NCBI RefSeq assembly: GCF_022846255.1
Contig: NZ_AP025682.1
Direction: 5' to 3' (one strand)
From: Escherichia coli
GTDB taxonomy: Bacteria; Pseudomonadota; Gammaproteobacteria; Enterobacterales; Enterobacteriaceae
Length of the DNA stretch: 64,000 bases
Below, piece by piece: positions 55,651 through 56,332 of the stretch; positions within the stretch are counted from its first letter, which is position 1; each line of letters opens with the position of its first letter. A model generated the notes under the pieces. The model did no database searches. It was given only the letters and a program-made list of their open reading frames with translations, and had not been told where the DNA came from. Position numbers and translations under genes: made by a program.

Positions 55651-56179
55651 CAGAAGCGATCCTCTTATGAGATGTAGGGTGACATGGCGATGCTCATTTC
55701 GTAGCCATAATCTAAAAATATCTACATTTCTGAAAAATGCGCATAAAAGTTACATATTGTTTTCTTATTGTGATCAAAAACAACAAATTAATAACAAATA
55801 ATGTGAGGGATAAGAATTGGGTTGAAAGGAAATGAATAATTAAAACAATATATTAAGTGTGCTTATACTCTTTTTCGAACTGGTGGCATTTGTTTAAATG
55901 CTATTTAAACTGCTTTTCCAGAGTTCAACTTACTGAGTTCCGTGTCGACTAATGTGAGTAAGATCAATCGCATCCAACCTATGTTACTTGATGGAATCGA
56001 TAACAATATTAATGAATATACAGATTCCGGGAAGGCTGGCTATGGGGGCAAATTATTCTCTTTCTGGCAACAGGTAAATAACAGTGACCATTTGTCGAGA
56101 AGCTGATACTAAGCTGAGGGATACTGTATATGTCTGGACTGTAATTGGATGAATTCTATTCAGGGCGGGTCAGGACCAA

Positions 56180-56205
56180 TAAAAAAGCCCGCATCAGCGG
56201 GCTTT
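56180..56205 (-). terminator. Rho-independent terminator downstream of ssrA
   Basis: Plus strand aaaaaagcccgcatcagcgggcttt, i.e. hairpin plus T-run on the minus strand; about 128 nt beyond the mature tmRNA 3' end. Confidence 0.7.
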
Positions 56206-56332
56206 AATGTCATAGGGAGTCGCGACTCCGTTGCGTATCCTTTTTTGTCTCCTCACCGTCTGGTCGGTGTCCTGCTGAGACTTATAACTTCCTGTTTTTG
56301 TTGGTGTAGTCCTTACACCGTCCAATCATGAT

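Follow-up and report, generated by a model that had tools for sequence, protein, structure and literature searches.

A probably natural, island-free ssrA–glaH junction in Escherichia coli

The 682-bp gap between the tmRNA gene ssrA and glaH (csiD), at positions 55651-56332 of the window (the whole 64,000-nucleotide stretch of Escherichia coli DNA analysed here), is very probably the natural, island-free ssrA–glaH junction of a haplotype carried by strains of phylogroup B2. An empty ssrA site is already known biology; the state is common, and typical of a lineage. The initial annotation had placed csiD about 680 bp from ssrA and had described the site as unoccupied. ARAGORN, Rfam and the ORF list agree on 682 bp, and the description holds: ssrA is intact, and the flank at 56332-56182 corresponds at 89.8% identity to DNA that lies past psaA in K-12. 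The lineage would have inherited its empty state and would not owe it to a precise excision. The features of the junction are collected in Table 1.

Table 1. Features of the ssrA–glaH junction and its flanks, in window positions
Feature	Position	Strand	Basis or remark
glaH (csiD), glutarate dioxygenase, 325 aa	54673-55650	-	ORF; annotation in SCU-125 and D8
Putative glaH promoter and 5' leader, 198 bp	55651-55848	-	Common to the window and K-12; promoter 91-98% identical to E1V33/E. whittamii vs 88.6% to K-12
TGTGA CRP-type half-site	55769-55773	-	Within the glaH promoter region
Non-coding spacer, 327 bp	55849-56175	none	Absent from K-12
Native ssrA trailer plus intrinsic terminator, ~150 bp	56332-56176	-	
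Predicted intrinsic terminator of ssrA	56176-56205	-	Stem-loop 56205-56184, then T-run
Native ssrA 3' trailer	56206-56332	-	Collinear with K-12 beyond psaA, SMS-3-5, E. whittamii and E1V33
Small hairpin/palindrome GGAGTCGCGACTCC in the trailer	56216-56229	-	Pairing kept in alignment
Predicted attB core, 3'-terminal ~15-35 nt of ssrA	56333-56367	-	att duplication in occupied genomes
ssrA (tmRNA), intact, tag ANDENYALAA	56333-56695	-	ARAGORN; Rfam
Predicted sigma-70-like promoter of ssrA (TAGTCA, 18-nt spacer, TG-TATACT)	56710-56739	-	Consensus scan only
smpB–ssrA intergenic region			91-92% identical to E1V33/E. whittamii vs 83.6% to K-12
smpB, core gene on the other flank of ssrA	56909-57391	-	ORF; SCU-125 annotation

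The ssrA gene of the window is full length against Rfam RF00023 (a score of 295.8 bits, covering model positions 1-374 of 374) and 100% identical to ssrA of K-12, which also has the same promoter hexamers upstream. Its 3' end reads ...CTCCACCA, with the last base at 56333. The attB core of occupied genomes reappears in them as a degenerate attR copy: the psaA remnant of K-12 aligns with window positions 56347-56333, and the attR of strain AH20K059 aligns as far as 56367. A search of the 64-kb window that allowed up to 3 mismatches found no second copy of the terminal 25-mer of ssrA, and the terminal 15-mer, with up to 2 mismatches, has one extra match in the window, which is at chance level and lies within the glaH coding sequence. 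The junction holds no residual prophage sequence and no degenerate or hybrid ssrA 3' end; the end is perfectly wild-type. Every sequence hallmark of an unoccupied ssrA attB is present, namely an intact gene, the flank that follows attR, the lack of an island, and use of the same site by relatives. The 3' end of ssrA is predicted to be an intact attB for tyrosine-integrase elements and would accept such an element.

The gap itself carries no sign of cargo. No ORF longer than 60 aa occurs in the ORF list for 55651-56332, ARAGORN finds no tRNA in this interval, and neither the ORF list nor Pfam reveals an integrase or other island genes in it. Four small ORFs of the gap (43-60 aa) give nothing above the Pfam cut-off, and when Rfam is run permissively over 54-58 kb, the tmRNA is the only match above cut-off. 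The initial annotation had reported that the gap lacks an integrase, a tRNA and a duplication of the ssrA 3' end, and the ORF list, Pfam, ARAGORN and the mismatch searches all agree with it; its description of the gap as partly AT-rich is likewise borne out by a GC content down to 0.27-0.40 over 55600-56100, the glaH-proximal half. Two candidate features were discarded. A weak Rfam match to Leu_leader (23.5 bits, with the cut-off at 50) is simply the terminator hairpin. A 54-aa ORF at 55942-56106 is partly conserved in the locus labelled E. coli SCPM-O-B-8794, and it is regarded as non-coding because 1-nt indels disrupt it in Escherichia sp. E1V33 and E. whittamii.

The long form of the junction is found in K-12 MG1655. 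The distance from the end of ssrA to the start of glaH is 33 kb in NC_000913.3, in keeping with the statement in the initial annotation that CP4-57 and accessory genes, tens of kb in all, occupy this position in K-12. CP4-57 (2755941-2777971, 22 kb, intA to ypjF) starts within the terminal bases of ssrA, and its far end is psaA, an annotated 14-bp ssrA remnant. After psaA come 11 kb with ypjA, pinH', ypjB, ypjC, the tRNA gene ileY and ygaQ', and then glaH. The window matches K-12 without a break as far as the 3' end of ssrA. Window positions 56347-56182 correspond to 23973-24137 of the extracted K-12 locus (L002), directly past CP4-57 and psaA, at 89.8% identity (89% for the trailer), and 55848-55600 matches K-12 just upstream of glaH at 90.9%. 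No counterpart of 56175-55849 was found in the K-12 locus. Because the ssrA trailer of the window is the DNA that lies past the far end of CP4-57 in K-12, the site in the window is a true empty attB. Only 22 kb of the extra 33 kb of K-12 is ssrA-integrated cargo; the 11-kb ypjA–ygaQ stretch is a separate block. Strain SMS-3-5 is unoccupied and lacks the 327-bp spacer: its ssrA is directly joined to the trailer, which is followed by the 11-kb ypjA–ygaQ block.

The trailer ends in a hairpin with the form of a strong intrinsic terminator. The stem-loop, AAAGCCCGC-TGAT-GCGGGCTTT, was scored by the terminator scan with 9 pairs, 6 of them G-C, and with the tail TTTATTGG, and it also forms when the trailer is folded to minimum free energy (z = -2.97). 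K-12 and SMS-3-5 preserve its stem, both bases of one G-C pair having changed to give A-T, GCCC[G/A]C...G[C/T]GGGC. Because nothing is integrated, ssrA would use its own terminator, and this native terminator, not an island-supplied one, would end ssrA transcription. The pairing of the smaller hairpin in the trailer survives a T-A to C-G double change, GGAG[T/C]CGCG[A/G]CTCC. In K-12 the trailer lies beyond CP4-57, unattached to ssrA. The small hairpin, whose pairing compensatory change has maintained, might act as a signal for tmRNA processing that is invisible in K-12, where the prophage supplies the trailer.

At the other end of the gap, glaH is the first gene of the glaH–lhgO–gabDTP cluster. 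Its promoter region is almost invariant across four Escherichia lineages, and the csiD promoter reportedly depends on sigma-S and cAMP-CRP (Marschall et al. 1998). The segment at 55651-55848 would act as the glaH promoter.

The frequency of the empty state was determined across 5,426 complete E. coli genomes. According to a 200-bp probe with the ssrA 3' end at its midpoint, the junction is uninterrupted in 2,528 of the 5,426 (47%) and interrupted in 53%. Because nearly half of the genomes (47%) have an uninterrupted ssrA junction, the empty state is unremarkable. The whole stretch from ssrA through the spacer to glaH lies in one piece in 708/5,426 (13%), a count that could take in genomes with small insertions, about 1.2 kb at most, owing to the joining of aligned pieces. 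The short spacing is accordingly not that of most strains including K-12, the situation in which the initial annotation would have had to be withdrawn: it is found in 13%, and K-12 has the long form. The spacer is present in 1,103 of the 5,426 genomes (20%), always as a single chromosomal copy at 95% identity or more. About 64% of these spacer-bearing genomes are empty at ssrA, and about 36% (1,103 minus 708) are non-contiguous, which indicates both gain and loss within the haplotype. Strain AH20K059 carries the same haplotype in the occupied state: a degenerate copy of about 30 nt of ssrA abuts the trailer and spacer, and island genes, a partial integrase gene and IS3 lie beyond this copy. 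S88, Nissle 1917, ATCC 25922 and ST131, which also carry the spacer, are phylogroup B2 strains, and D8 and SCU-125 belong to the same phylogroup.

The spacer occupies the position that the 11-kb ypjA–ygaQ block has in K-12-type strains. A search in distant mode of the 5,426 genomes revealed no additional genomes or copies, Pfam gives no match on the spacer, and a comparison at word size 7 with the other loci compared and with the rest of the window detected no similarity beyond its homologues, which occur in loci L007, L009 and L011 at 86%, 85% and 79% identity, respectively. The ORFs of the spacer are disrupted by 1-nt indels in other Escherichia species. An origin of the spacer as a remnant of ypjA–ygaQ or as a mobile element was rejected, as it has no similarity to the K-12 locus. 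The conserved spacer might have a function, for example as an extension of the sigma-S/CRP-dependent regulatory region of glaH or as a small RNA. A third arrangement of the ssrA–glaH locus is seen in L011, the locus labelled E. coli SCPM-O-B-8794, in which a 349-aa ORF (239-1288) with its own terminator precedes the spacer homologue in place of ssrA; by eye, its sequence resembles a fimbrial adhesin.

The short form extends beyond E. coli. A scan for relatives of glaH, with one genome per species, found 245 and returned several Escherichia species. The tmRNA gene lies 701 bp upstream of glaH in Escherichia sp. E1V33 and 727 bp upstream in E. whittamii, and the stretch from ssrA through the spacer to glaH is collinear with that of the window at 93.6% and 89.4% identity, respectively. 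Because it occurs in 708 E. coli genomes as well as in E. whittamii and E1V33, the short form is an old haplotype, common to several Escherichia species, and not a recent deletion or an artefact. In E. albertii a tRNA(CAU) gene and a diverged gene resembling ygaQ lie upstream of glaH, and so the long form may be equally old. MOD1-EC7003 has long-type or other DNA at this position, and no ssrA was found within 10 kb of glaH in Salmonella and Citrobacter.

Divergence from K-12 is not confined to the gap; the divergent block covers 54673-56908. The glaH gene is 94% identical to that of K-12, and the core neighbours smpB and ratA are 98-99% identical. In its non-coding parts the block resembles E1V33 and E. 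whittamii (91-98%) more closely than K-12 (83-89%). The pattern of identities suggests an old tract of recombination or allelic exchange centred on ssrA. A broader joint reading would make the block from the smpB–ssrA region to glaH an ancient cross-species polymorphism in which the spacer may have a function and the trailer may carry a processing signal; taken as a whole, this reading is quite unlikely. With its counterpart in Pseudocitrobacter vendiensis (L005, 10001-10975) the GlaH protein of the window shares 98% identity, as much as or more than with the Escherichia records in the same scan (95-98%), and this identity hints that the glaH region may have moved between genera.

An empty site could also be a vacated one. 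An island or prophage may formerly have been present at ssrA and have left by precise integrase-mediated excision, which would have restored a perfect attB. Elements of the CP4-57 type encode IntA and AlpA and are known to excise, and the spacer haplotype mixes occupied and empty states, with 1,103 spacer-bearing genomes, 708 of them contiguous, and with AH20K059 occupied. No trace of an island is left; since none would be expected after precise excision, the resulting sequence is the same as that of a site never occupied. However, the ssrA end of the window is wild-type, whereas K-12 and AH20K059 have a degenerate attR, and excision of such old elements would tend to damage the end. Former occupation is thus considered unlikely, and inheritance of a naturally island-free junction is preferred.

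That about 33 kb, comprising CP4-57 and ypjA–ygaQ, were recently and cleanly deleted from a K-12-like ancestor is highly improbable. Although K-12 does have 33 kb at this position, nothing in the K-12 locus or, in the distant-mode search, in any genome outside the spacer-bearing set corresponds to the 327-bp spacer, which is present at species-level divergence in E. whittamii, E1V33 and L011. Furthermore, the flanking non-coding DNA is only 83-89% identical to that of K-12, which is far too diverged for recent common descent. Because a deletion can generate neither the spacer nor the observed divergence, descent from a K-12-like ancestor by deletion is rejected. The initial annotation had offered an ancestral empty site and a clean deletion as alternatives; the latter falls, the spacer being common to two other species, and the short form may be the ancestral one. 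That an island really present in the genome was lost from the assembly by collapse has practically no probability: 708 independent complete genomes contain the same junction, some with 100% identity over 1.4 kb, as do two other Escherichia species, and window searches detect no repeat there of the kind that makes an assembly collapse. The natural, island-free junction remains the best explanation of the gap and leaves nothing at the locus unexplained.

The initial annotation had singled out the junction as the one place in the window where strain-specific cargo would be expected but is lacking. Strain variation is not limited to it: at least two other presence/absence differences exist, at about 2.5-6.8 kb and at about 44.03-44.10 kb. 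Between hycI and hydN, at 2539-6834, lie an ascB-like 6-phospho-beta-glucosidase gene, ascF (PTS IIBC) and a gene for a LacI-family regulator; the genes at this place in SCU-125 are two hypothetical ones and a HigB-type toxin/HTH pair. Around 44028-44102, SCU-125 and apparently D8 have about 1.9 kb more than the window, annotated in SCU-125 as genes of the carboxymuconolactone-decarboxylase family and the PLP-dependent aminotransferase family, both of which the window lacks. The only tRNA genes of the window are those of the serV-argVYZQ type at 26384-26976. The best match of 44102-64000 among the 5,426 complete E. coli genomes is 98.9% identical. Identity to the best matches is patchy, ranging from 97.0 to 99.9% per kb, with 97.0% at 57-58 kb to D8 as well as to SCU-125. 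Identity to SCU-125 is complete (100%) over 1.4 kb but drops to about 98.5% over 20 kb, with indels. By these identities, 44102-64000 is a mosaic typical of recombination.

Along with CP4-57, the strain lacks the defence and toxin-antitoxin systems that this prophage carries as cargo. Elements that target ssrA could use the empty attB as a landing pad, and the site provides a convenient typing marker. The frequencies of 47% for the empty junction and 13% for the short form quantify how ordinary this state is.

The junction of the window resembles that of K-12 MG1655 in gene order, with smpB and ssrA on one side and glaH, lhgO and gabD on the other, in the same trailer and terminator, which follow attR in K-12, and in the same glaH-proximal 198 bp. 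It differs in length, 682 bp against 33 kb, and in the spacer, which only the window has of the two. The window lacks CP4-57, ypjA (a YpjA/EhaD autotransporter), ypjB/C, the second tRNA-Ile(CAU) gene, ileY, and ygaQ (amylase-family) of K-12. S88, Nissle 1917, ATCC 25922, ST131, D8 and SCU-125 show no difference of substance from the window at the ssrA–glaH locus; their gap is 98-100% identical to that of the window and is unannotated there. Elsewhere in the window the differences from these strains are patchy, with 97-99.9% identity per kb. According to the literature, tmRNA genes are frequent targets of genomic islands. Unlike the known island sites in tmRNA genes, the site in the window is empty, without an element, an integrase or an att duplication; like them, it is formed by the same gene and the same 3'-terminal segment, the one that is duplicated in psaA of K-12 and in AH20K059.
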